Part shown: positions 287-36,772 of the stretch, in pieces
How the letters are laid out: each line of letters starts with the position of its first letter
How positions within the stretch are numbered: the first letter of the stretch is position 1
Notes under the pieces: model-generated
Told to the model about the DNA's origin: nothing
What the model saw: the letters and a program-made list of their open reading frames with translations, nothing else
Database searches by the model: none
Assembly (NCBI GenBank): GCA_039714075.1
Contig: JBDLKA010000002.1
Span: 1 to 64,000, forward strand
DNA length: 64,000 nt
From: Candidatus Krumholzibacteriota bacterium
Lineage (GTDB): Bacteria > Krumholzibacteriota > Krumholzibacteriia > LZORAL124-64-63
Reading direction: 5' to 3'
Position numbers and translations under genes: made by a program

Positions 287-922
287 TTACCTATACAGTG
301 TCTTGACAGACCCGAAGGACTCATCATCAACGGGTAAGCCGCAACAGTTGTTGAAGCAAAAATAACCACCACAAGGTGTTTCGCTGTCAATGTGCATGGT
401 CCGCAATTGTCCGGGAACCGACTGGAATACCATCTCGCCAGGGATGCTTGGATCGTTGGTCGGAGACAGTGAGATCACTGTCGGCAGGGGACTGACGGTC
501 ATAAACTGGAAGGAGATCAGGGTGGCGGCCCCGCTGATCACCTCCAGGGACGTGCCCAGACTCACGATGTACTCCAGAAACCCCTGATTGATATCGCTGG
601 CGTCACCTTCATTGACGGCTGTGGGAGACAAAATTTCCGCCAGCATGAACAGAGCCGGGCCGGTGATATTCAACATGCACTCGAAGGCGTTGATGGTGGC
701 GTAAGGGGCGTCCGCGTTTTCCGCATCCGTCGGATTGATCAGAACCAGGAAGACCGAAACAGGAACACCGATATCGGTGGTACCGGTAGCGCCGGTACCA
801 TCTGCTGTCATGAAGAGACCGACTTGATTGTTCGGCAAGGACGGGAACTGAGGGAAGCCGGGCTTGGGAACCAGGAGGTAAAGCACAGCCAGCACCCAGG
901 CGGCAAAACGAATCGTTTTCAT
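287..922 (-). CDS. Secreted cohesin-like beta-sandwich protein with C-terminal ESFGSVKTLYR tail (paralog of 3235..3867)
   Basis: N-terminal signal-like segment; gapless alignment to 3235..3867 (~74% identity over 147 aa by hand count); purine-rich AAGGGGG upstream; cohesin call is by pattern only. Confidence 0.75.
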   Translation of the reverse strand: MKTIRFAAWVLAVLYLLVPKPGFPQFPSLPNNQVGLFMTADGTGATGTTDIGVPVSVFLVLINPTDAENADAPYATINAFECMLNITGPALFMLAEILSPTAVNEGDASDINQGFLEYIVSLGTSLEVISGAATLISFQFMTVSPLPTVISLSPTNDPSIPGEMVFQSVPGQLRTMHIDSETPCGGYFCFNNCCGLPVDDESFGSVKTLYR

Positions 923-1272
923 TTCCCGGCCCCCTTGATCAAATGAAGTTCAATTCAGTAAGTCCGGCAAAGCACCTCAGCCATGGCCCTGCCATATACA
1001 TATGTCACTATATGAGATTACAGTATCGTTATCAAATGCCGGAGGTCGCCTTTGAAGCATACCTTTCCCTTGGGTTGTCGGATGAGAGGGAGAGCACGCG
1101 AGCAGGAAATCACAGCTTCGAGGCTTGTTTTTGCCCACAATCAAAAAAAATAATATATAGTCAAATGCCCCATATTTTGGTCTTTAGTGGGTTTCCCACT
1201 CATTTTTTCCTCATGTAAATTGAAAATTCAGATTTTTTTTCCAATTTTCAGCAGAAGACAAGAAATAATGGG

Positions 1273-1301
1273 TTGCATTGGCTATGCCCATATGGTACTC
1301 T
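1273..1301 (+). promoter_or_regulatory. Sigma-70 promoter with extended -10 and AT-rich upstream region
   Basis: TTGCAT-N17-TACTCT with TG two bases before the -10 hexamer; A/T tracts at ~1140-1270. Confidence 0.6.
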
Positions 1302-1414
1302 AATGTTGTCAAGTGATGGACATGTGAGTGGGAAGGAGAGCTCAACGCAGTTGTCAATGTGTCCGCTTGGGTTAGCCACCCTCGCTAGAATGTGCCTTTT
1401 TTGGAGGTGTCCTA

Positions 1415-2038
1415 ATGGTTCTTAGGAAACTCATGGGTATTTTTGCTATTACCCTGATTGTTTGTGCCGCTTCGCTCGCTACCGCGGGTGTGCCGGACGT
1501 TACTCAGTGCACGGCGACTTCCGGTCATGCCGGATTTGCTGTTTTGATGAGCGTCCCCAATGGCAATGGCAATCCTTTCACCCTCGCTTCTGATGGTGTC
1601 GGGAATGTTGATGCTACGATTACCGTGGTCGTCAATGATGCTACGCCGGCCCCCATCGCCAACTATCCTTTCGAGGATATCTGGTTGATTTCCGTGGATG
1701 GCGGCATGGCTGCCTGTGTCGGTGGTGCTACCGCTGACGCCAGCACTGATGCTTTGGGCGTTACCGAGTTCCAGACTCCGCTGCAGGCGGGTGGCTGGTC
1801 CACGTCCGATTCTCGTGTCATCATCAATGGCAATGCCATTCCCGGTGACGTGTCTCTCGGACATAACAGCCCGGATCTCGATGGTAGCGGCGCGGTCAAC
1901 CTGACTGACGTCCAGATCTTCGCCGGTGACTTCTTCGACGTTGCTTACAATTTCCGGTCCGACCTGTTCTTCGACGCTGTCGTGAACCTGTCCGATCTGC
2001 CTTTGTTGGCTGCCGCCGTTGGAGCCACCTGCCCCTAG
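1415..2038 (+). CDS. Secreted protein with C-terminal dockerin-like domain
   Basis: RBS GGAGGT; signal peptide (..ASLATA); two Ca-binding loop-helix repeats SPDLDGSGAVNLTDVQIFAGDF and RSDLFFDAVVNLSDLPLLAAAV. Confidence 0.8.
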   Translation: MVLRKLMGIFAITLIVCAASLATAGVPDVTQCTATSGHAGFAVLMSVPNGNGNPFTLASDGVGNVDATITVVVNDATPAPIANYPFEDIWLISVDGGMAACVGGATADASTDALGVTEFQTPLQAGGWSTSDSRVIINGNAIPGDVSLGHNSPDLDGSGAVNLTDVQIFAGDFFDVAYNFRSDLFFDAVVNLSDLPLLAAAVGATCP

Positions 2039-2200
2039 GATTTCCCACCCGCACCCGGCTTGACCGGGTGTGACCACGGAAATTCAGGGATGTTGATATG
2101 GATGGCCCTGCTAATGCAGGTGGCGGGGCCATCGCTTCTCGCCCGATCAATTCGGCGAATTTCCAGGAAGTACCTGCTCAACTCTTTTAGGAGACACAAC

Positions 2201-2815
2201 ATGAAGAAGTTGGTAGTTCTTTTACTGGCCAGTCTGGTGGCTACGTCAGCTTTTGGTGTCGCGGATCCCGATGACAACATGATGGGGATCTACTTCGACC
2301 TGACCGCTGATACCTATTGCCTCGATACTCCGGCCAGCGTTCCCTTCATGGCCTACATCATTCTCACCCACACCACCGCTCCTTCCATCAATGCCTACGA
2401 GCTGGGCCTGACGGTTGGGGTTCCTGCCGGCATGGAAGGCATGATCTTCCGTCTGGCTTCCACCATCGCCAACGGCGTTGTCAGTGGTGTGGATGTTGGT
2501 ACCAATGGGCCTCTGGGCGGCGATTTCATCGTCGGCCTGGCTGCTCCTCTTCCGGGCGACCCCGCTGTTGTTCTGCACTCATTCCAGTACATGCTGCTGG
2601 CCGTGATGCCTGTGGAATTCTACATCGGTGCTTCCTCGGCTCCTTCCATCCCGGGTGATTTCCCCGTGGTGCAGAATGCCGACGGATCCATCCTGATGCA
2701 GGTCGGACAGTCGACTGGCGGACCGGGTACCCCGGTTGCTCTCATCAACAGCGGTTGTAATGTTGTTGGTGTCGAAGAGGCTAGCTTTGGTAGCGTCAAG
2801 AGCTTGTTCCGGTAA
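2201..2815 (+). CDS. Secreted cohesin-like protein with C-terminal ASFGSVKSLFR tail
   Basis: RBS AGGAG before ATG 2201; signal peptide MKKLVVLLLASLVATSAFG; shares G(I/L)(Y/F), IV(G/S)L, L-x-SFQ, PSI and tail motifs with the 287 and 3235 genes. Confidence 0.8.
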   Translation: MKKLVVLLLASLVATSAFGVADPDDNMMGIYFDLTADTYCLDTPASVPFMAYIILTHTTAPSINAYELGLTVGVPAGMEGMIFRLASTIANGVVSGVDVGTNGPLGGDFIVGLAAPLPGDPAVVLHSFQYMLLAVMPVEFYIGASSAPSIPGDFPVVQNADGSILMQVGQSTGGPGTPVALINSGCNVVGVEEASFGSVKSLFR

Positions 2816-2827
2816 AACGGGATAGGT

Positions 2828-2892
2828 TGCGGCTTCGGCCGCAGGACTTCGGTCCAAGAACCCGGGTGGATTTTCCACCCGGGTCTTTTTTT
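2828..2892 (+). terminator. Two C(UUCG)G hairpins followed by an intrinsic terminator
   Basis: TGCGGC-TTCG-GCCGCA, GGAC-TTCG-GTCC, then ACCCGGGTGGA-TTT-TCCACCCGGGT plus T-tract. Confidence 0.85.
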
Positions 2893-3234
2893 GCCGGTTT
2901 GTTAACCCTTGACAGACCCTCCAAATGCCCGGATATTCACTGTGTCGGATCCTATACCTGCAATGTATTTGGTTTTCTAAGGCGTTTTCAGGTGGAGGGT
3001 GGGCCAAACGGTTCAGTTTTTGCTCAAGAAATTTCGCCACAGGCCAAAAAGAGTGCTTGTAGGGCCGGAAAAGACTCAGTATCTTTTTATCGTTGTCGTG
3101 GAAAGTGTTTCCTGCTTATTGGCCCAGTCCGGACCAGGCGTGAAGGATCGTCGCTCTGGCCTGATTCGGATATTGCAGGATCGCTTAATGACCAGGGTTG
3201 AAAAATGGATTTTCCAGGAAAGGGGAATCGTAAA

Positions 3235-3867
3235 ATGAAGAAGTTGCTTTTTGCCGTGTCGGCGCTTGCCGCGCTTTCTCTGCTGGCTCCCAGCACGGGT
3301 TTCGCCCAGCACGAGAGTTCTGCCAACAACCAGTTGGGACTGTTCCTTGCCGCCGACGGAACCGGCGCCACCGGTTCGGCCGATATCGGCGTTCCGGTTT
3401 CGGTCTTCCTGGTTCTGATCAATCCGACTGACGTTGATGCCGGGGAAGCCCCTTATGCCACTCTCAACGCCTTCGAATGCATGCTGAATTTCGACGGCCC
3501 GGCCTTGTTCAAGTTGGCTGACACCTTGCCTCCCACCGCCGTCAACGTGGGTGACAACAGTGACATCAACCAGGGCTTCCTGGAGTACATCGTGGGGCTG
3601 GGCACGTCCATGGATGTGAGCGCGGCTTCAGCCACGCTGATCTCCTTCCAGTTCATGACTACCAGTCCCTTGCCGACCACGATCACGCTGACTCAGACCA
3701 GCGCTCCCAGTATCGCCAACGAGATGGCCTTCCAGTCGGTTACCGGCCAGCTGCGGGTCATGCATAATGCCAGCGGTACGAAAGACGGTATCGTGTTCGC
3801 TTTCAACGGTGAACCTGTGGCAATCGAAAACGAATCCTTCGGATCGGTCAAAGCGCTGTTCCGTTAG
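3235..3867 (+). CDS. Secreted cohesin-like protein with C-terminal ESFGSVKALFR tail
   Basis: RBS AAAGGGG before ATG 3235; signal peptide MKKLLFAVSALAALSLLAPSTGFA; beta-strand pattern resembling cohesin. Confidence 0.8.
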   Translation: MKKLLFAVSALAALSLLAPSTGFAQHESSANNQLGLFLAADGTGATGSADIGVPVSVFLVLINPTDVDAGEAPYATLNAFECMLNFDGPALFKLADTLPPTAVNVGDNSDINQGFLEYIVGLGTSMDVSAASATLISFQFMTTSPLPTTITLTQTSAPSIANEMAFQSVTGQLRVMHNASGTKDGIVFAFNGEPVAIENESFGSVKALFR

Positions 3868-3911
3868 GGAAAATTTCCCGCAATTCCGGCCTGGTCCGGT
3901 TCTGCGAGTGT

Positions 3912-3945
3912 CGAAAGGGGCGGGTTTTCCCGCCCCTTTCGTTTG
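3912..3945 (+). terminator. Intrinsic terminator
   Basis: CGAAAGGGGCGGG-TTTT-CCCGCCCCTTTCG followed by TTTG. Confidence 0.75.
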
Positions 3946-4005
3946 TCCAGGCCCCGGGGTTCGTTTGTTCTGATCCCCTGGGCCGATTTTTCCACCGGCA
4001 AGTCA

Positions 4006-4034
4006 TTGACCCCGTTCTGATTCGGTCCTATAAT
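4006..4034 (+). promoter_or_regulatory. Sigma-70 promoter for the C25 peptidase gene
   Basis: TTGACC-N17-TATAAT; this argues against the ATG at 4033 as the start codon. Confidence 0.7.
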
Positions 4035-4104
4035 GATTGTACGCCCAACCGGGCCGTGCCTGCCCCTGATCGATCATTCAACCACTTCCTTCCGGGAGAC
4101 CAGG

Positions 4105-7100
4105 ATGGGTCATTCTGTGTATAGTCTGTTTGGAAATATTATTTCCGTTGGGTTCAGGTGCGCCAAGGTGTCTGGAACCGATTCTCGATCGTTGATCCGG
4201 GTCATGCTTTGTCTATTGGCAATGGCGTCCCTGGTGCCGGGCGGAGTATTGGCCGCCGGGGATTCCACGGGGAATGCCGGCGGACAATTCAAGGTCCTGT
4301 CCAGCGGCCCGGAGGCCCTCCGGTTTTCCTTCGGCAACCTGGAGCCGGTCTGGATTCCCCGCACGGTGGGCGATCCGGCGGTAACGCTTTACGACGTGAG
4401 CATGGATGGTTTCATTTCCTCCGGGGAGCCGGGCCACCCCCGAGTGCCCCGGACCGGCGGTTGGGTCGTTGTTCCCCCGGGCACCCGACCCGAGGTCAAG
4501 CCGCTCAAGGAGCAGTGGGAGCCCGCGGGGGACCGCCCGCTGATGGTCGAAGCGGTGCCCGTGATTATCCCGGGCGGCGAACCCTGGGAAAGTTCCGCCT
4601 CCGAGATCTTCGTGATGCCGGGTGAAGAACCCCCGGCCGACGCGCGGATCCCCGCCGCCGCCGTGGAGGCCCTGGCCCGTCGGGGACAGATTCCTCCCGC
4701 CGGGGCCGTGACACTGGGCGAGGTTGTCTGGTGGCGTGGCCGGCGCATCGTGTCCTATCAGGTAACTCCCATCCGGCAGGATGCCGCAGGACGGGCGGGT
4801 CGGTATCTGGCTTCGGGTTCCTGGGAAATCCGTTTCGTGCCCGACAGCTCCGCCGGCCGGGCCATTGCCGGGGCCCAGGCCCGCAAGATCTCCAATCGGA
4901 ACGACGACCGGTTCGGCGAAATATTCCTGAATCGCGAACTTCTGACCCAATTGCCCGTGGAAGCCACGTGGCAGGGTGTCGATTTTTCAGCCGAACAGGA
5001 TGCCGAAAACAGTGCCCTGAAAAATTCGCGCGGCGGAAAAGCCGGGACCCTGCTGGGTCCGGAAACCCGGCTGGCGATGTGGAAGACCGGGCTGGTCAGA
5101 TTGACTTTTGACCGGCTGCGCTCCCGGGGCCATCTGCCGGAGGGCGTGATCCGTGAGGACCAGATCCGGCTTTTCCAGCGGCGGTACGATGCATCCCTCG
5201 ACGACGGGACCGGCCAGGCTCCCTACGTGGAAATCGAGGTTCCCCTGCACATGGTGGGTGAGGGGGACGATTTTGACGGGGACGATTATTTCGTATTCTA
5301 CGGACTGCGCTCGCGGGACGACCTGGCCTATGAGGCTGATCTCGGGAACGGGACCGTCACCATCTCCGGGGCCGGCGATGAATTCGAGATGAACAACCAG
5401 GGCAATGTCTACTGGTTGGCCGCCAGTGAGCCCGAAGCGGGCACCCCCTGGGCGCGAATGGCCACCACCACCCTGCCGGCGGCCGCGGGCACACCTTTGG
5501 CCAATTACCGCCGGGACGACCATGTCGAGGAAAACCTGGCCTTCCGGGAAAACCCGCCCGCCGGGAATGTGGATCGCCTGTACTTCAACACCTATCGCAC
5601 CTTTGACATCAGTGCGGGCCTCGATCCCCTGTGGGCTCCCGATCCGGCCGGTGCGGACGTGGACATCAAGTTGGCCATCGCCGGCTACAACGATGTGCCC
5701 CACACCCTGGGGATCGACCTGGTCACCAATTCGATTCTCACCACCCATCTGGAGAACTATTACATATCCAGAATCGAGGAGGTGCAGCGAAGTTACCGGG
5801 TTCCTGCTGCGGCCATTGACGGGGATTTCGCGGAAATCCACATCTATCGATCTCCCACCGGCCCTTTCAATGTGTACAGCTTCCTGAATTGGGTGGAGAT
5901 CTCCTACGATGCCCTGTATCAGGCCACCGGTGACAGGATCACCTTCAACGCCGGCATGGGTGTCGGCCCGCAGCCCATCGAGGTCACCGGTTTTACTTCC
6001 GCGGACATCGGTCTGGTCGAAGTGACCGATCCCAGGAACCCGGTGTTCGTGGAGCTTGCCGGCGGCAACATTACCACGACCGACAGTGTGACCTGGACCC
6101 TTTCGGTGATGCCGGATCAATCCGGGGCCACCCGTATCTTTGCCGCCGTGGGGGACTTCTCCACCTCCGGCGTGGATGAATACAACTACCTTTTGCCGAC
6201 CATTGCCGAGGACCCGACCAATCCCACCACCCTGGCGGGATCCGATCCCGACCTGGTCGTGATCGCGCATCCCGAATTCATTCCGGCTCTCGACCGCTGG
6301 GTCGAACATCGCAAGAGCAGGGCGGGGGGGAACCTCGACGTTCATGTGGTGGACGTGGATGATCTGTACGACTGGTACAGCGGCGGCATGCGGGATCCCT
6401 GGGCCCTCAAGCGGTTCGTGACGCACGCCATCACGCAATGGAACAGCTGGGCCCTGACCGTGGTGGGGGACGCCAACGAAAACTCCCTGGAGAAGGGTGT
6501 CGTGGCCTCGGCCCGCGGGTGGTCCAAGGACTGGGTGCCGACCCATTACCACTCCCAGACGGCGCTGGCGTTCACCCCCGAATTGATGGCCTCGGACAAG
6601 TGGTACACGACCCTTGAATCCGGCCAGAACTACCCGCTGGATAATTTTCCCTGGGATGTCCTGGCCCCCTGGGAAATGTACACCGGCCGTCTGCCCTGCA
6701 ATTCGGTGGCGGAACTGGACATCATGATCGACAAGATCATGACCGTGGACAACGTGGCGGCGGACCAGGCCTGGCGGCGGCGGGGCATCTTTTTCGCCGA
6801 TGACCAGTGGTCCAACGGATATGGTGCGAACAGCAGCGATGAACTCATTTACAAATGGAATGAAACCGTGTTTGCCGATAGTGAGAGGGACTCCCTTTCC
6901 CGCATGTGGAGCAGCGGATCCCCGGTGGCCCTGGACAGCATCCTGGTGCTTCTCGAGGACACCCTGGATCCGGTCATGCCGCCCTACGAGGGGTCGACAC
7001 CTGATCCCCGTGACCTGAGCTACACGCAGAGCATGGCCAGTGCCGCATCGACTCCCGTCCTCATCGGCAAGTTGAGCCAGGGGGGGCTGGTGGCTCATTA

Positions 7101-8574
7101 CCAGGGACACGCCAATCCCTACGTGCTTTCTTCGGAATACTGGCTTCAGGACAAGAACGACGTGGTGAGCCGTCTGGATGTGGCCAAGCTGGGCAATACG
7201 GACAAGCCCTGGTTTTTCATGGGAATGGGCTGTCATATCGCCGACTGGGCCCAGAATACGGTGCTGGCCACCACCCAGCCGCACGAGCGGTCGATATCCG
7301 AAAAATTCCTGATAAAACCGCGATCCGGGGCGTCGGCAGCCTATGGCAGTTCGGGATATGAATACATCTCCACGAACAGGTTGTTCGGGGAATATATTTT
7401 CCGGCGCTGGATGGTGAATCCTCCCGCGCAGCGATCGGTGGGCAACTCCCAAAACCTGCGCAGCCGCTGGGTCACTGGAGAGTTGATGTGGGCCGCAGAA
7501 GCGGACATCTACGCGGCGAACCGGGGCTCCACTGTCCAGGAGATGATATCCCAGTACGTGCTTCTGGGCGACCCGCTGATGGGACTGGATGCCGGGGAGC
7601 CCCAGGTTACGGCGTTCCTGATCGATCCCGTGGACCAGGAAATCGTGGACGGGGCGGAAATCTTCGCCCTGGACAATACCAACCTGCGCACGGTCCGCCT
7701 GTTTGCCCGCGATGAAGCCGGGATCGACCGGGTCCAGGTCGTCGATTCCCGGGGCGAGGACCTGACGGGCGGAATGGTGATAACCGAAACCCTGCCCGCG
7801 GGTGTGACGAATCACCAGAGCGTGCAACTGGACCTGTCGGTACCGGTGCGTCCTTTCGCCCATGATCTGATCGTCAAGGTCTACGACACGGGCGGCGCCC
7901 TGGAGTCGGATCGGCATTACGAACTGCTGTTGCACCTGCCGCAGACCGCCGAGTTTTCGCTCGATGGTTCCGTTGTCGATCCCGCGACATTCGTGTTTCC
8001 CGCCGAGACGCCGCTTCGTTTCCGCGCCGAGGTCACCAGCGCCGCCTGGATGCTGGGATACGATCCGGCTGTTGATTTCGAGTTGCGAAGCGTGGGCGAG
8101 ACCCTCGCCATTGCGCCGGATGTCGATTTCCAGTTGAACAAGAACCAGCATCTGACGGTGAACTTCACCGCCACGGCCGCGGTCGAGAATCCCGATGACC
8201 AGCACGTGGTGGAGCTGTTGATCAAGGGGTATCCCACGGAACTGGTCCTGCAGCAGGGGACCGGCGCGGCCACCAGCATGACCATCTCCAAGGTCTACAA
8301 TTTCCCCAATCCCATGCGGGAGAGTACCCGGTTCGTGTTCGAAAGCGGATTGGCGGCCAATGAGGGGACCATCAGGGTCTTTTCCGTTGCCGGGCGCCCG
8401 GTGGCCAGGATTCCCTTCGTGTTTTCCGGCGGCGGGTCCGGGGTTGTGGAATGGAACGGCCGGGACAGCGCCGGGGATGACATGGGGAACGGCACCTACC
8501 TCTACCGGGTGGAGATAGAGACCAACAACGGCCTGGTGGTCAGTGATATGCAACGGTTGGTGATGATGCGTTGA
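4105..8574 (+). CDS. Peptidase family C25 (gingipain/PorU-like) with propeptide and C-terminal T9SS-CTD/FlgD Ig-like domain
   Basis: C25 motifs DLVVIAHPEF, DLYDWYSGG..DP.ALKRF, YTGRLP, HYQGH (His ~7108), GMGC (Cys ~7231), YVLLGDP; C-terminus NFPNPM..IRVFSVAGRPV..WNGRDSAG..GTYLYRV; RBS GGAG before ATG 4105 (start uncertain). Confidence 0.85.
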   Translation: MGHSVYSLFGNIISVGFRCAKVSGTDSRSLIRVMLCLLAMASLVPGGVLAAGDSTGNAGGQFKVLSSGPEALRFSFGNLEPVWIPRTVGDPAVTLYDVSMDGFISSGEPGHPRVPRTGGWVVVPPGTRPEVKPLKEQWEPAGDRPLMVEAVPVIIPGGEPWESSASEIFVMPGEEPPADARIPAAAVEALARRGQIPPAGAVTLGEVVWWRGRRIVSYQVTPIRQDAAGRAGRYLASGSWEIRFVPDSSAGRAIAGAQARKISNRNDDRFGEIFLNRELLTQLPVEATWQGVDFSAEQDAENSALKNSRGGKAGTLLGPETRLAMWKTGLVRLTFDRLRSRGHLPEGVIREDQIRLFQRRYDASLDDGTGQAPYVEIEVPLHMVGEGDDFDGDDYFVFYGLRSRDDLAYEADLGNGTVTISGAGDEFEMNNQGNVYWLAASEPEAGTPWARMATTTLPAAAGTPLANYRRDDHVEENLAFRENPPAGNVDRLYFNTYRTFDISAGLDPLWAPDPAGADVDIKLAIAGYNDVPHTLGIDLVTNSILTTHLENYYISRIEEVQRSYRVPAAAIDGDFAEIHIYRSPTGPFNVYSFLNWVEISYDALYQATGDRITFNAGMGVGPQPIEVTGFTSADIGLVEVTDPRNPVFVELAGGNITTTDSVTWTLSVMPDQSGATRIFAAVGDFSTSGVDEYNYLLPTIAEDPTNPTTLAGSDPDLVVIAHPEFIPALDRWVEHRKSRAGGNLDVHVVDVDDLYDWYSGGMRDPWALKRFVTHAITQWNSWALTVVGDANENSLEKGVVASARGWSKDWVPTHYHSQTALAFTPELMASDKWYTTLESGQNYPLDNFPWDVLAPWEMYTGRLPCNSVAELDIMIDKIMTVDNVAADQAWRRRGIFFADDQWSNGYGANSSDELIYKWNETVFADSERDSLSRMWSSGSPVALDSILVLLEDTLDPVMPPYEGSTPDPRDLSYTQSMASAASTPVLIGKLSQGGLVAHYQGHANPYVLSSEYWLQDKNDVVSRLDVAKLGNTDKPWFFMGMGCHIADWAQNTVLATTQPHERSISEKFLIKPRSGASAAYGSSGYEYISTNRLFGEYIFRRWMVNPPAQRSVGNSQNLRSRWVTGELMWAAEADIYAANRGSTVQEMISQYVLLGDPLMGLDAGEPQVTAFLIDPVDQEIVDGAEIFALDNTNLRTVRLFARDEAGIDRVQVVDSRGEDLTGGMVITETLPAGVTNHQSVQLDLSVPVRPFAHDLIVKVYDTGGALESDRHYELLLHLPQTAEFSLDGSVVDPATFVFPAETPLRFRAEVTSAAWMLGYDPAVDFELRSVGETLAIAPDVDFQLNKNQHLTVNFTATAAVENPDDQHVVELLIKGYPTELVLQQGTGAATSMTISKVYNFPNPMRESTRFVFESGLAANEGTIRVFSVAGRPVARIPFVFSGGGSGVVEWNGRDSAGDDMGNGTYLYRVEIETNNGLVVSDMQRLVMMR

Positions 8575-31511: not shown

Positions 31512-33332
31512 ATGTGCGGAATAGTTGGAGTGGTGGGCAGCCCGGACGCCGCGTCGATCCTGCTTGAAGGTCTCAAAAGACTGGAATACAGGGGATACGA
31601 CAGCGCGGGCCTCGTCATCATGACTCCCGACCGTCAGCATGTGGTCAAGGAGAAGGGCAAGATAGTCAACCTCGAGGGCGCCCTCAAATGGGATGAACTC
31701 AAGGGATCCTGCGGGATCGCCCACACCCGTTGGGCGACGCACGGGGCGCCCAACCAGGTCAACGCCCATCCCCATGTCTCGGGCAAGGTGGCCCTGGTCC
31801 ACAACGGCATCATCGAAAACCACGGCGCCCTGAAGGTGCAGCTGACCAGCAAGGGCCACGAATTCGAATCCCAGACCGATACCGAGGTCCTGGTCCACCT
31901 GATCGAGGATTTCTACGACGGCGACCTGGTCAAGGCCGTGCAACTGGCCCTGGGTGTCGTCGAAGGCGCCTACGGCATCGCGGTGACCCACCTGGACGAA
32001 CCGGACCTGATCATCGGCGCGCGCAAGGGCAGCCCTCTGGTCGTGGGCGTCGGCGAGGGCGTGAACTACCTGGCCAGCGACGTGGCCGCGGTCATGGGCC
32101 ACACCCGCCAGGTCATCTACCTGGACGACGGCGAGATGGTGACCCTGCGTCCCGAGGGCGTGGTGACGACGACCATCGACAACGAGGAGATCACCAAGGA
32201 GATCCAGGAGATCACCTGGGACCTGGGCCAGATCCAGAAGGGCGGCTACGAGCACTTCATGCTCAAGGAGATCTTCGAGCAGCCGCAGACCATTCGCGAT
32301 TCCTTCCGCGGCCGGATCCTGCCTGAAGGCGGCGACGTGAAGCTGGGGGGCATCGAACTGACCGACTGGGAGCTGCGCAACATCCGCCGGATCATCATCC
32401 TGGCCTGCGGGACCTCGTGGCACGCGGGTCTGGTGGGCGAGTATCTGCTGGAGGAATACGCGCACATTCCGGTGGAAGTCGAGTACGCCTCGGAGTTCCG
32501 CTACCGTTCGCCGATCATCGAGCCGGGCACCCTGTGCCTGGTGATCAGCCAGAGCGGCGAGACCATCGATACGCTGGAAGCCATGCGCGAGGCCAAGCGC
32601 AAGGGCGCCAAAGTGCTGGGCATCACCAACGTGGTGGGCTCGACCATCGCGCGCGAGAGCGAGTGCGGGGTCTACATTCACGCCGGGCCCGAGATCGGGG
32701 TCGCTTCGACCAAGGCCTTCACCAGCCAGGTGACGATCCTGGCGCTGATGGCCATCCTGTTCGGCCGGCGCACCCACCTGAGCGCCGACCGCGGCAAGCA
32801 GATGCTGGACGAGCTGGTCAGGCTGCCCGACCTGGTGCAGAAGGTGCTGGACCAGTCCGACGCCATCAAGGAAATCGCCGAGGTTTACGCGGGCCACAAG
32901 AACTGCCTGTACCTGGGGCGCGGGGTGAACTTCCCGATCGCCCTGGAGGGCGCGCTGAAGCTGAAGGAGATCAGCTACATCCACGCCGAGGGTTATCCCG
33001 CCGCGGAGATGAAGCACGGTCCCATCGCGTTGATCGATCCGGAAATGCCGGTGGTCGTGATCGCGACCAAGGACGGCAGCTACGACAAGATCGTCGGCAA
33101 CGTGCAGGAGGTGCGGGCGCGTGACGGGAAGATCATTTCCATCGTCACCGAGGGTGACACGGAGATCGCCGACCTGAGCGATCACGTGATCACCATTCCC
33201 GAGACGATGAACTTTTGGACGCCTTTGCTGTCGGTGATTCCGCTTCAGCTGCTGGCGTACCATATCGCCGTTATCAGGGGCGAGGACGTGGACCAGCCGC
33301 GCAACCTCGCAAAGGCGGTCACGGTCGAATAG
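31512..33332 (+). CDS. glmS: Glutamine--fructose-6-phosphate transaminase
   Basis: MCGIVG, LEYRGYDSAG, HTRWATHG, SQSGET, LKLKE, VDQPRNLAKAVTVE. Confidence 0.98.
   Translation: MCGIVGVVGSPDAASILLEGLKRLEYRGYDSAGLVIMTPDRQHVVKEKGKIVNLEGALKWDELKGSCGIAHTRWATHGAPNQVNAHPHVSGKVALVHNGIIENHGALKVQLTSKGHEFESQTDTEVLVHLIEDFYDGDLVKAVQLALGVVEGAYGIAVTHLDEPDLIIGARKGSPLVVGVGEGVNYLASDVAAVMGHTRQVIYLDDGEMVTLRPEGVVTTTIDNEEITKEIQEITWDLGQIQKGGYEHFMLKEIFEQPQTIRDSFRGRILPEGGDVKLGGIELTDWELRNIRRIIILACGTSWHAGLVGEYLLEEYAHIPVEVEYASEFRYRSPIIEPGTLCLVISQSGETIDTLEAMREAKRKGAKVLGITNVVGSTIARESECGVYIHAGPEIGVASTKAFTSQVTILALMAILFGRRTHLSADRGKQMLDELVRLPDLVQKVLDQSDAIKEIAEVYAGHKNCLYLGRGVNFPIALEGALKLKEISYIHAEGYPAAEMKHGPIALIDPEMPVVVIATKDGSYDKIVGNVQEVRARDGKIISIVTEGDTEIADLSDHVITIPETMNFWTPLLSVIPLQLLAYHIAVIRGEDVDQPRNLAKAVTVE
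33056..33332 (+). repeat. glmS 3' end, copy 1 of a 277-bp direct repeat (copy 2 at 35715..35991)
   Basis: First 54 bp identical to 35715-35768; ~30 substitutions in the rest, only 2 non-synonymous. Confidence 0.95.
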
Positions 33333-33552
33333 GCCGGGTTACCCCCCGTTCGGGGATGGAGGGCGGCGGCTTCTTGTCGCCGCCCTCCTCGCGTTACGGG
33401 ACCTTCCACGAACCCACTTCCCGGGGCATCCCACGACGCCCGTGGTGGGAAATGACCCGGACTACCATGCGATATGTTTACAGGAGTTATTTTGTCTGAT
33501 ATGATGAGGTCCAACAGATATGATGAGGTCCATACAGAATGTAGGTGCCAAT

Positions 33553-35553
33553 ATGATGAATTTTCTAAAAACCGTCCCGATTGCCATCCTCGCTGGATCC
33601 ATTGCTCTGCTGTTCCTTGTGCCTGTCTCATCCCTTGCGGGCGGAACGGTGGAGGTATGGGGCTATCAGGTGATTCTCCCTCTCGACGAGATGACCGATA
33701 TCGTGAAGATCGCCAACGGGGTGGGCTACGATCTGGCCCTGAGGTCCGACGGGACCCTGGTGGCCTGGGGGAACAACGATTCCGGCCAGTGTGACGTTCC
33801 GGTGGCCGCCGAACCCTTTGTCGACATCGCCGCGGGAAACGGTCACGGCCTGGCCCTCACCGAATCCGGAATCGTCTACGAATGGGGCGCCCCCTGGGGA
33901 ACCCCGCTCGACGACCCCACCGGCTTCACTGCCATCGCGACCTTAGGCGACCACAGCCTGGGCCTGAAGGAGGACGGCTCCATCGTCGCCTGGGGTTTCG
34001 CCTGGTTCGGTGCTGAGATTGTCCCCGAACCCAACGAGGACTGGGTGGCCATCGCAGCTTCGTTCGATCAGAGCTTCGGTGTGAAGTCCGATGGCTCCGT
34101 CTTCCTGTGGGGAAACGTGACCATGGAATGGCCCACACCCATCACGGACGTCAAGTCCATCAAACTCAATTTCACCAATGCCCTTGTTCTGCGGAATGAC
34201 GGCAGCATCGTTCCCGTCGGATCCTTTCCGTATGAAGAGGACCTTATTCCGGAGCCGAACATCGGCTTCCGGGACGTGGACCTTGGTCTGGCTCACGCCC
34301 GGGGCATCCGGGCTGACGGAACCATGATCAGTTGGGGCAGCGGGACCTTCTGGGCGACCGACCCGCCGGCTCCCAACAGTGGGTTTTTAAGTGTTGCGGC
34401 CATCGACACCCATTACGTCGCTCTTCGGGAAGACGGAACGGTTTCCGTCTGGGGCAGGAACAGCGATGGGCAGAGTGGCCCCCAACCGCCGGTCCCCGAT
34501 CCGGTGGAGGTTTCCTGCAACGATTTCCACGGAGTGGTCCTTGATCGCAGCGGCACGATCTCTACCTGGGGCGAATTGCCCCCGGCCCCCGAGCCCAATG
34601 AGGATTTCATCAAGATCGCCACCTCCCATAACGGGGCGGCCGGTTTGAAAAGCACCGGGGAGATCGTCATCTGGAAGCGTCCCTTCGGCTATTCGGTTAC
34701 TCCCCTCAATAGCGGGGATTACGTGGATGTCGCCGCGGGTTACGAACATTACCTCGGCCTGCGCTCCAACGGCTCGATCGACGTCACCGGCTATGACAGG
34801 CGACCCGTGCCCGAACCCAATACGGGTTTCACCGCCATCGCGGCGGGAAATGACGTCAGCATGGGGTTGAAGGAGGATGGGTCCATCGTGGTCTGGGGGG
34901 GGGGCAATCCTGTGGCCTCCGTGAACCCGCCCGAGCCCAACCCGGGCTACGTGGACATGGCGGCTGGGTGGGGATGGGCCGTAGTCCTCAAGGATGACGG
35001 GACCATCGTGGCCTGGGGAGGCTGGACGACCCCCACCGAGGGAAACCACGACTTGGTGTCCATCGACGCCAGCACTTTCTTCTTGGTGGGCCTTCATTCC
35101 GACGGGTCGGTCGAGATATGGGATATCTATGGTACTGCACCTCCTTCCTTTCTGGACGTGCCCCAGCCCAACGCGGGCTTCATCAGGGTGGAAATCGGCC
35201 AGGGCGGGATCGCCGCCATCAGGGACCCGGCGGCCAGTCCGGTCGATCAGGACCTTCCCGGCCCCGTCCACACGGCCCTGGATCTGGCCGTCAGTCCGAA
35301 CCCCTTCAACCCCCGGTTGGCGGTGATGGTCACCAGCGCCGTTTCCGCCGGGGTCACCCTCGAGGTCCTGGATGTCCGGGGACGCAGGGTCAAGGTCATC
35401 TGGCGGGGTGAACTCCCGGCCGGAGGAAGCCATTCCGCAGTTTGGGACGGGCGCGACGGAGCCGGTCGGTCCATGCCCTCGGGAACCTATTTCGTGCAGG
35501 CGAGAAATTTCGGAACGCGCGGGGCGGTGCAGAAGATATCCCTGATCCGGTGA
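33553..35553 (+). CDS. Secreted RCC1/BLIP-II-like beta-propeller repeat protein with C-terminal FlgD/T9SS-CTD domain
   Basis: Signal peptide; many PEPN..F..IAAG..H.LGL..DGSIV.WG repeats; tail PNPFNP..EVLDVRGRRV..WDGRDGAG..MPSGTYFV..KISLIR. Confidence 0.88.
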   Translation: MMNFLKTVPIAILAGSIALLFLVPVSSLAGGTVEVWGYQVILPLDEMTDIVKIANGVGYDLALRSDGTLVAWGNNDSGQCDVPVAAEPFVDIAAGNGHGLALTESGIVYEWGAPWGTPLDDPTGFTAIATLGDHSLGLKEDGSIVAWGFAWFGAEIVPEPNEDWVAIAASFDQSFGVKSDGSVFLWGNVTMEWPTPITDVKSIKLNFTNALVLRNDGSIVPVGSFPYEEDLIPEPNIGFRDVDLGLAHARGIRADGTMISWGSGTFWATDPPAPNSGFLSVAAIDTHYVALREDGTVSVWGRNSDGQSGPQPPVPDPVEVSCNDFHGVVLDRSGTISTWGELPPAPEPNEDFIKIATSHNGAAGLKSTGEIVIWKRPFGYSVTPLNSGDYVDVAAGYEHYLGLRSNGSIDVTGYDRRPVPEPNTGFTAIAAGNDVSMGLKEDGSIVVWGGGNPVASVNPPEPNPGYVDMAAGWGWAVVLKDDGTIVAWGGWTTPTEGNHDLVSIDASTFFLVGLHSDGSVEIWDIYGTAPPSFLDVPQPNAGFIRVEIGQGGIAAIRDPAASPVDQDLPGPVHTALDLAVSPNPFNPRLAVMVTSAVSAGVTLEVLDVRGRRVKVIWRGELPAGGSHSAVWDGRDGAGRSMPSGTYFVQARNFGTRGAVQKISLIR

Positions 35554-35619: not shown

Positions 35620-35991
35620 GCCGCCGGTCGCTTCGACCTGGTGGCGGCCCTCGGCGGCGACGGGACGGTGCACGAGGTGGCCCTCGGGCTGGCGGGGACA
35701 TCCTGTCCCATGGCCGTGATCGCGACCAAGGACGGCAGCTACGACAAGATCGTCGGCAACGTGCAGGAAGTGCGGACGCGCGATGGCAAGATCATCTCGG
35801 TCGTCACCGAGGGCGACACCGAGATCGCCGACCTGAGCGATCACGTGATCACTATTCCCGAGACGATGAACTTCTGGACGCCGCTGCTTTCCGTGATTCC
35901 GCTGCAGCTGTTGGCGTATCATATCGCGGTTATCCGCGGGGAAGACGTGGACCAGCCGCGCAATCTGGCCAAGGCGGTCACGGTGGAATGA
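35620..35991 (+). pseudogene. Chimeric remnant: DAG-kinase fragment fused in frame to the duplicated glmS C-terminus
   Basis: 35620-35718 encodes AAGRFDLVAALGGDGTVHEVALGLAGTSCPMAV, homologous to 36967-37065; 35715-35991 repeats the last ~91 glmS codons. Confidence 0.85.
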
Positions 35992-36674: not shown

Positions 36675-36772
36675 GGGAATGAGTGTGGTCTGGTGACTGC
36701 CGGGGACTTCAAATCCTTCTGTCGGGCGCGTTTACCGTCCGAGGTGGGTTCGATTCCCACACATTCCCGCCA
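36675..36772 (+). tRNA. selC: tRNA-Sec(TCA)
   Basis: 98 nt; 6-bp D-stem with TGGT loop (GTGGTC/GACTGC), anticodon loop CTTCAAA, long variable arm, GTGGG-TTCGATT-CCCAC, extended acceptor, GCCA end. Confidence 0.92.

Follow-up and report, generated by a model that had tools for sequence, protein, structure and literature searches.

The first 64,000 nucleotides of contig C2 of a Candidatus Krumholzibacteriota genome (4.06 Mb, 92% complete; this whole stretch is referred to here as the window) encode three proteins with signal peptides and a nearly invariant C-terminal tail, next to a peptidase of the C25 family, to which PorU, the processing enzyme of the secretion system called type IX (T9SS), also belongs. 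This tail is found across the phylum, is strictly C-terminal and alternates with known sorting signals, and a second clade of PorU-like peptidases, catalytically intact as judged by its His/Cys dyad, is kept beside genes for tail proteins with a cohesin-like domain and for dockerin-like proteins. The tail is very probably a sorting or targeting signal. The fuller reading that we favour, to which we give about as much belief as doubt, is that it would be a sorting signal linked to the T9SS and free of any transmembrane segment, which the C25 enzyme of the window type would cleave, the cohesin-tail proteins acting as anchors.

The C-terminal tail and its passengers

Some 17 residues make up the conserved unit, which has the consensus (P)V[AGP][VT]Exx[ST][WF]Gx[VLI]Kx[LM][YF]R-stop, in which V stands at position -16 in 59 of 75 copies, A, P or G at -15, V or T at -14 and E at -13 (52/75). 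An earlier reading made from the window alone (the sequence-only reading) had pictured a tail of about 10 residues behind an acidic linker; this picture has to be amended, since the V[AGP][VT]E of the "linker" belongs to the conserved unit. The three open reading frames (ORFs) of the window end as that reading had claimed: 287..922 on the minus strand (tail at 287..340, 17 codons and the stop), 2201..2815 on the plus strand (tail at 2762..2815, comprising the cleavage-site-like stretch V/GVEE and then SFGSVKSLFR) and 3205..3867 on the plus strand (tail at 3814..3867), with the C25 ORF (4033/4105-8574) next. The tails at 287..340 and 3814..3867 are recognised by the ORF end, by a position-specific scoring matrix (PSSM) and by a hidden Markov model (HMM). 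The 2201..2815 protein had been taken for a mere distant relative of the other two, but all three are paralogues of one family (2201..2815 against 3205..3867: 30% identity, E 2e-12). Because of this paralogy, the window by itself could not exclude a motif specific to that family.

The whole-genome scan does exclude it, because it finds many different passengers. A loose tail pattern, searched in six frames, matched 56 ORF C-termini against 3 internal sites, the PSSM (score >10) gave 75 C-terminal matches and 1 internal match, and the HMM found 76 tails. With their tails removed, the 75 passengers fall into 41 BLAST clusters, with 32 singletons and a largest cluster of 23 members, which rules out a family-specific motif. 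Pfam names few of these passengers (lamin-tail, C39-like, AhpC/TSA, beta-helix, CBM20 and beta-propeller domains among them) and holds no family that spans the tail in any of the 75 proteins; the NCBIfam search covered the three tail proteins of the window. Beyond this genome, the HMM matches all of the 201 genomes sampled from the phylum, in 80 genera (matches at any position), and in the ESM Atlas the tail fragment reaches a best score of 0.89 with unnamed clusters, which we regard as a lead only.

Signal-peptide-like starts were scored for 64 of the 75 tail proteins, compared with 125 of 139 CTD proteins (those ending in the T9SS C-terminal domain, CTD) and 626 of 1733 control ORFs, using a lenient in-house heuristic in place of SignalP. 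Among the 11 tail proteins missed by this heuristic, four have a signal peptide by eye and one is truncated where its contig stops. A cytoplasmic location is thus ruled out by these starts for most tail proteins. The proteins are small (median 209 residues, maximum 508, CTD proteins having a median of about 730), and a transmembrane-like stretch (mean hydropathy of 1.6 over 17 residues, within the last 40) is present in one of the 75. The basic end of the tail is a single terminal Arg, with no Arg cluster. The hydrophobic moment is 0.45 both at 100 and at 170 degrees, and a membrane-binding amphipathic helix is therefore not singled out, as the value at 100 degrees is no higher than that at 170.

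Some individual carriers deserve a mention. Two lipoproteins with a tail are encoded at G000:C57 (L034) and G000:C27:8175-8882; a paralogue with 54-67% identity ends precisely at the point at which a tail would start. A tail protein fragment at L031:301-615 contains the motif CxxCH and matches Temptin_C.

The tail and the type IX C-terminal domain

T9SS signals are folded beta domains, and 160 proteins of the genome end in a T9SS CTD of the FlgD_ig-like kind. No tail protein is found among the 166 ORFs that match a CTD, and a CTD profile search of the 75 tail proteins gave no match. The sequence-only reading had suggested testing whether the two signals alternate on the same passengers, and this is borne out by one pair of proteins of this genome, the first with a tail and the second with a CTD, that are 64% identical across the whole passenger, and additionally by a common slot among their homologues. 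In the best 120 of the 1375 database homologues of this passenger, 107 ends are tails recognised by the HMM, five are divergent tails assigned by eye and five are CTDs, the rest being one end which by eye we take to be PEP-CTERM-like, one other domain and one truncated sequence. The junction with the passenger lies at the same place for the tail, the CTD and the PEP-CTERM-like end.

Tail and CTD may also resemble each other around the presumed site of cleavage. According to the available text of PMC4560394, PorU cuts at X/(GSA)(VLI), and a (GSA)(VLI) dipeptide is found at one fixed register of the tail in 25 of the 75 proteins (background 4.4%), or in 53 of them when P and T are also allowed. 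When the stretch before the CTDs was scored with a PSSM built from tails only (n=142), the mean was 2.97, against 1.61 for a control region (p 1e-4) and 2.24 for shuffles (p 3e-3), and a regular expression that was picked after viewing both sets matched 80 against 18 of 147. Tails and CTDs alike finish in an L-hydrophobic-basic sequence. One CTD protein, G000:C4:46279-47772 (L214:2280-3773), has a degenerate tail-like stretch immediately before its CTD.

The C25 peptidase and its neighbours

The gene at 4105..8574 (plus strand; its start codon is uncertain and the ORF is open from 4033) encodes a C25 peptidase (PF01364, 176.5 bits against a cut-off of 23, E 1e-51), which, as had been read from the window, keeps a catalytic His (7108-7110) and Cys (7231-7233) and carries a CTD of its own, of the FlgD_ig type (8353-8523). 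Both residues are conserved without exception in the 41 orthologues aligned, and they line up with the His/Cys motifs of PorU (6za2) and Kgp (this dyad was reached by a PDB profile search, and not by a single-sequence one), which rules out a dead peptidase. The description of the enzyme as PorU-like stands as regards its relationship to PorU and its intact dyad, but it is not the canonical PorU: it scores 162.5 bits with the PorU model NF033707 (cut-off 420), and another gene, on contig C19, reaches 466.7 bits and adjoins PorV. In a midpoint-rooted FastTree phylogeny of 106 catalytic regions, including copies from families missed at E 1e-20, the window-type enzymes all group together (support 0.94), with canonical PorU as their sister group (0.998). 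The model score, the C19 gene and the tree together rule out the window enzyme as canonical PorU. The clade has invariant active-site neighbours of its own (GCH; Y[GA]SxG[YF]E), and the ESM Atlas returns generic C25 proteins for the catalytic domain.

There are four C25 genes in this genome, where SprA and six PorV-family genes score over their cut-offs. Across the phylum, canonical PorU is found in 188 of 201 genomes, SprA over its cut-off in 41 of 41, and the window-type C25 in 178 of 201, as well as in five of five further genomes missed in the first search. The co-occurrence with C25/PorU, PorV and SprA proposed earlier is hence observed, within one phylum where SprA, PorV and PorU are all near-universal. 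The seeming absence of the window-type enzyme from family f3 (0/7 at E 1e-20) was a sensitivity artefact, since four of four re-examined f3 genomes hold it. The sequence-only reading had named a one-family motif, cytoplasmic carriers, a lack of co-occurrence with C25/T9SS genes and a missing His/Cys dyad as findings that would count against it, and we encountered none of these. Searches for GldM and GldN in this genome, and likewise for PEP-CTERM, gave no match, but their search controls were silent too.

The tie between tail and window C25 is also visible in the gene order. In a sample of 40 of the 178 window-type genomes (picked for long contigs and covering six families), tail genes recognised by the HMM lie on the same strand and at most 5 kb upstream of the window-type C25 in 37; of the remaining three, one has a divergent tail by eye, one has tail genes before a second C25 copy and one has none. 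A larger count, 48 of 51, contains probable duplicates and is left aside. A dockerin gene is present in 37 of the 40 loci, and in one f2 genome the cassette is complete. In the control loci, those of canonical PorU, a tail gene within the same distance upstream occurs in 0 of 21 and PorV in 21 of 21; at random positions of the window's genome a tail gene is nearby in 7.8% of cases. Since these kin are not independent, the gene order counts as one long-kept arrangement, or one ancestral event, and not as 37 events. The link is also confounded, as 108 of the 115 tail genes near the window-type C25 belong to one family, that of the cohesin fold; the sequence-only reading had recognised neither this family nor the dockerin gene.

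The cohesin assignment comes from structure prediction. The model of the 2201..2815 protein has a predicted local distance difference test score (pLDDT) of 93.2, with the tail modelled as coil and helix (SFGSVKSLFR forms a short predicted helix, pLDDT 66-81), and its 19 best structural matches are all cohesin-module entries (Z 12.6 to 8.8, the next fold having Z 8.3), led by 2vo8_A (Z 12.6, root-mean-square deviation (rmsd) 3.1, 129 aligned residues, 8% identity). No Pfam cohesin model matches any of the 124 members of this family at E 0.05, and a PDB sequence search gave no match. The three tail proteins of the window are therefore predicted, by the model of one and the family membership of the other two, to share a cohesin fold; in this genome the family has 26 tail-bearing members and also occurs in four CTD proteins.

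The dockerin-like protein is encoded by the first gene of the cassette (1415..2038, plus strand) and comprises a signal peptide, an immunoglobulin-like (Ig-like, X) module and a dockerin-like module, with neither tail nor CTD. In its model (pLDDT 97.8), the dockerin-like module has two Asp-rich repeats and two helices. Dockerin_1 matches 12 of 47 homologues, although not the window copy; Foldseek aligns X-dockerin chains over the whole length, as well as a type II dockerin (rmsd 1.5 over 53 columns, E 0.016), and a wide structural search returned only Ig-like matches with Z <7. The protein belongs to a family of eight members in the genome. Judging from folds and gene order, the cohesin-tail proteins probably bind it. 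A single protein at G000:C4:64152-67958 (L211:6153-9959) joins an X-dockerin module, a cohesin-family domain and a CTD.

Within the window, the gene at 287..922 is an inverted paralogue of 3205..3867 (66% identical), it is missing from the cassette of the relatives and it lies outside the conserved cassette, in which 1415..2038 comes first, followed by 2201..2815 and by 3205..3867, immediately 5' of the C25 gene; a tRNA-Val (23-99) just precedes 287..922. Downstream of the C25 gene, 8624..11463 (plus strand) encodes a SpoIID/LytB protein and a GH3 beta-N-acetylhexosaminidase-like protein, a pair often, not always, found there (both follow the C25 gene in most loci of family f1, and SpoIID in several distant ones), which probably lies outside the sorting system. 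Further along, a 279-base direct repeat of the 3' end of glmS (33052-33330 and 35711-35989, 90% identical) flanks a CTD gene with RCC1 repeats (33520-35553), which suggests an insertion or duplication at glmS, and a tRNA-SeC is predicted at 36675-36772. Elsewhere in the data set, PorV paralogues stand beside TolQ/ExbB-like genes (L055, L059). The genes that come next in the canonical PorU-PorV operon (L052:1606-17308) encode an M6-like CTD protein, a protein with NHL repeats and one of 1160 residues with weak SprA similarity (E 3e-7), and a further SprA-like fragment lies on contig C13.

Function of the tail and comparison with known systems

The mechanism that we favour would start with Sec export through the N-terminal signal peptide, for which there is sequence evidence. 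A receptor would then recognise the [ST][WF]Gx[VLI]Kx[LM][YF]R end, which would replace the folded CTD, and an enzyme of the PorU family would cut within the V/[AGP][VT]E stretch and pass the new C-terminus to an envelope anchor. Judging from motif, gene order and the retained dyad, the second PorU-like C25 of the window would be the most likely such enzyme. Folds and gene order further suggest that the cohesin-tail proteins may serve as anchored sockets for the X-dockerin protein 1415..2038 and its paralogues, which lack both tail and CTD; on the whole, the tail would be used mainly on small single-domain passengers in the envelope pathway of Krumholzibacteriota. The parts of this scheme are not equally firm: we incline slightly towards cleavage of the tail by a C25 enzyme, and consider it somewhat less likely than not that the window-type paralogue, in preference to canonical PorU, is that enzyme. 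The proposal that the neighbouring C25 handles a minimal sorting signal has thus held as regards the signal-like character (passengers, slot and signal peptides), and has to be modified in that this C25 is not the canonical PorU.

Several observations weigh against this scheme. A CTD-bearing BLAST homologue exists in the genome for only 5 of the 75 tail passengers, 50 of the 75 tails miss the strict (GSA)(VLI) rule, 19 have Pro at the presumed +1 position, and at a threshold of at least 4 bits the tail-only PSSM separates only 38 from 30 of 142. Missing from the tail are motif B and the beta-strands, the elements by means of which CTDs of both kinds, long and short, bind PorV in models (PMC11969387, in the text available). 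At least two tail ORFs, in the part inspected, have no signal peptide, and two tail proteins have lipoprotein signal peptides. As for the enzyme, Arg R722, put forward as a PorU feature (PMC4560394, again as far as the available text goes), corresponds to Gly (32 residues after the Cys) in 48 of 51 window-type sequences; it is also absent from all 21 canonical PorU of the phylum. No PorV homologue was found by BLAST in the window-type C25 loci, and the gene order may reflect a link of the enzyme with the cohesin module rather than with the tail. In family f3, moreover, genes for tail, cohesin or dockerin proteins are lacking upstream of the C25 in four of four genomes, while dockerin and cohesin-tail genes are still neighbours, away from the C25, in two of the four.

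This last point would fit a tail that is an uncleaved docking peptide, a flexible linker with a short aromatic and basic helix whose target would be a scaffold shared in the envelope or a carrier with a CTD; the C25 paralogue would then accompany the cohesin-dockerin genes for some other reason. The dockerin-cohesin linkage indeed outlives the C25 linkage in f3, the near-invariant W/F, G, K, Y/F and R fit a binding epitope, Pro is frequent at +1, and in G000:C4:46279-47772 the degenerate tail-like stretch precedes a CTD. We nevertheless consider a docking peptide unlikely on balance, given that the fixed-register (GSA/P)(VLIT)E appears to resemble the stretch before the CTDs of the same genome, that the tail stands in for signals that are cleaved, and that the C25 synteny holds in seven of the eight families examined.

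The common cleavage-site-like stretch and L-hydrophobic-basic end could also mean that the tail is an extreme short CTD, using the canonical SprA-PorV-PorU route or a PorV paralogue, in which case the window C25 would have another substrate. The six PorV-family genes of the genome would leave room for this, and CTDs of 43-55 residues and a minimal signal of 22 residues are reported in the available part of PMC11969387. The short CTDs described there, however, retain motif B and three strands, whereas the tail has about 17 residues modelled as coil and helix, and the absence of tail genes within 5 kb upstream in all 21 canonical PorU-PorV loci makes this explanation quite improbable. We give still less credit to a tag acting inside the envelope (periplasmic retention, a membrane-surface helix or turnover), with passengers that would stay on the inner side of the outer membrane. 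Carriers of the tail do include a redoxin, a protein with CxxCH and two lipoproteins, and the passengers are small (median 209 residues) compared with the CTD proteins (about 730), but other copies of the same passengers bear CTD or PEP-CTERM-like surface signals, and the hydrophobic moment does not single out an amphipathic membrane helix.

If a cleaved, T9SS-linked tail is the correct reading, a soluble tag of 17 residues, carried by about 2% of the genes of the phylum, would represent a third design of sorting signal and would allow covalent display at the surface by means of a very short tag; to our knowledge, the small C-terminal sorting signals described so far require a membrane-spanning segment. 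It would also assign a location to dozens of hypothetical proteins per genome, and the tie to a distinct PorU clade provides a candidate enzyme and a candidate cut site, and hence a directly testable claim. A more speculative extension, which we find rather doubtful, is a second, parallel sortase branch in which the tail, read by a dedicated PorU paralogue, would anchor dozens of small proteins, single cohesins that display dockerin proteins included, on a T9SS from which the Gld/Por KLMN motor may be absent; a diderm phylum would then use an anchoring logic like that of cellulosomes. Tail-based anchoring of envelope proteins is apparently undescribed: in a full-text literature search, from which subscription journals are largely excluded, no paper was found on Krumholzibacteria with type IX secretion, none combining cohesin, dockerin and Latescibacter, and none joining four of the terms Latescibacter, Eisenbacteria, T9SS, C-terminal and PorU. 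The available part of PMC4454575 does not mention cohesin, dockerin or sortase.

Among known systems, the type A CTD of the T9SS (TIGR04183/PF18962, here the FlgD_ig-like PF13860; NF033707 for PorU) is similar to the tail in being C-terminal on signal-peptide proteins, in the interchangeable slot, in the L-hydrophobic-basic end and perhaps in the cleavage-site-like stretch, and in the company of SprA and of a C25 enzyme with aligned His and Cys. It differs in being a beta-sandwich of 70-80 residues with motifs B, D and E, as opposed to about 17 residues with neither sandwich nor motif B, and the window C25 differs from PorU in belonging to a clade of its own, in scoring under the PorU cut-off and in having no PorV linkage. 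The short CTDs of Prevotella intermedia (PMC11969387, from the accessible text) offer another shortened signal used alongside long CTDs in one genome, but with 43-55 residues, three beta-strands and motifs B, D and E retained; the tail is a third of that length and has an unrelated W/F-G-x-x-K motif. With the tripartite signals LPXTG, PEP-CTERM and MYXO-CTERM, as presented in the accessible part of bioRxiv 10.1101/2023.06.07.544157, the tail shares the C-terminal position, the multiple copies with signature residues, the signal peptides and the unrelated passengers, and it differs from them in having no transmembrane segment or Arg cluster. The cassette itself recalls the type II cohesin-X-dockerin pairs and, in Ruminococcus flavefaciens, ScaE, a cohesin which a sortase anchors and to which scaffoldins with an X-dockerin are bound (PMC4081043, in the text available). 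The window family has about 8% identity to such cohesins and no Pfam cohesin match, its dockerin binding is putative, and no cellulosomal enzymes were identified. Both arrangements have a cohesin with a C-terminal signal, an X-dockerin partner and clustered genes, here in a diderm host and with a C25 enzyme in the place of the sortase.

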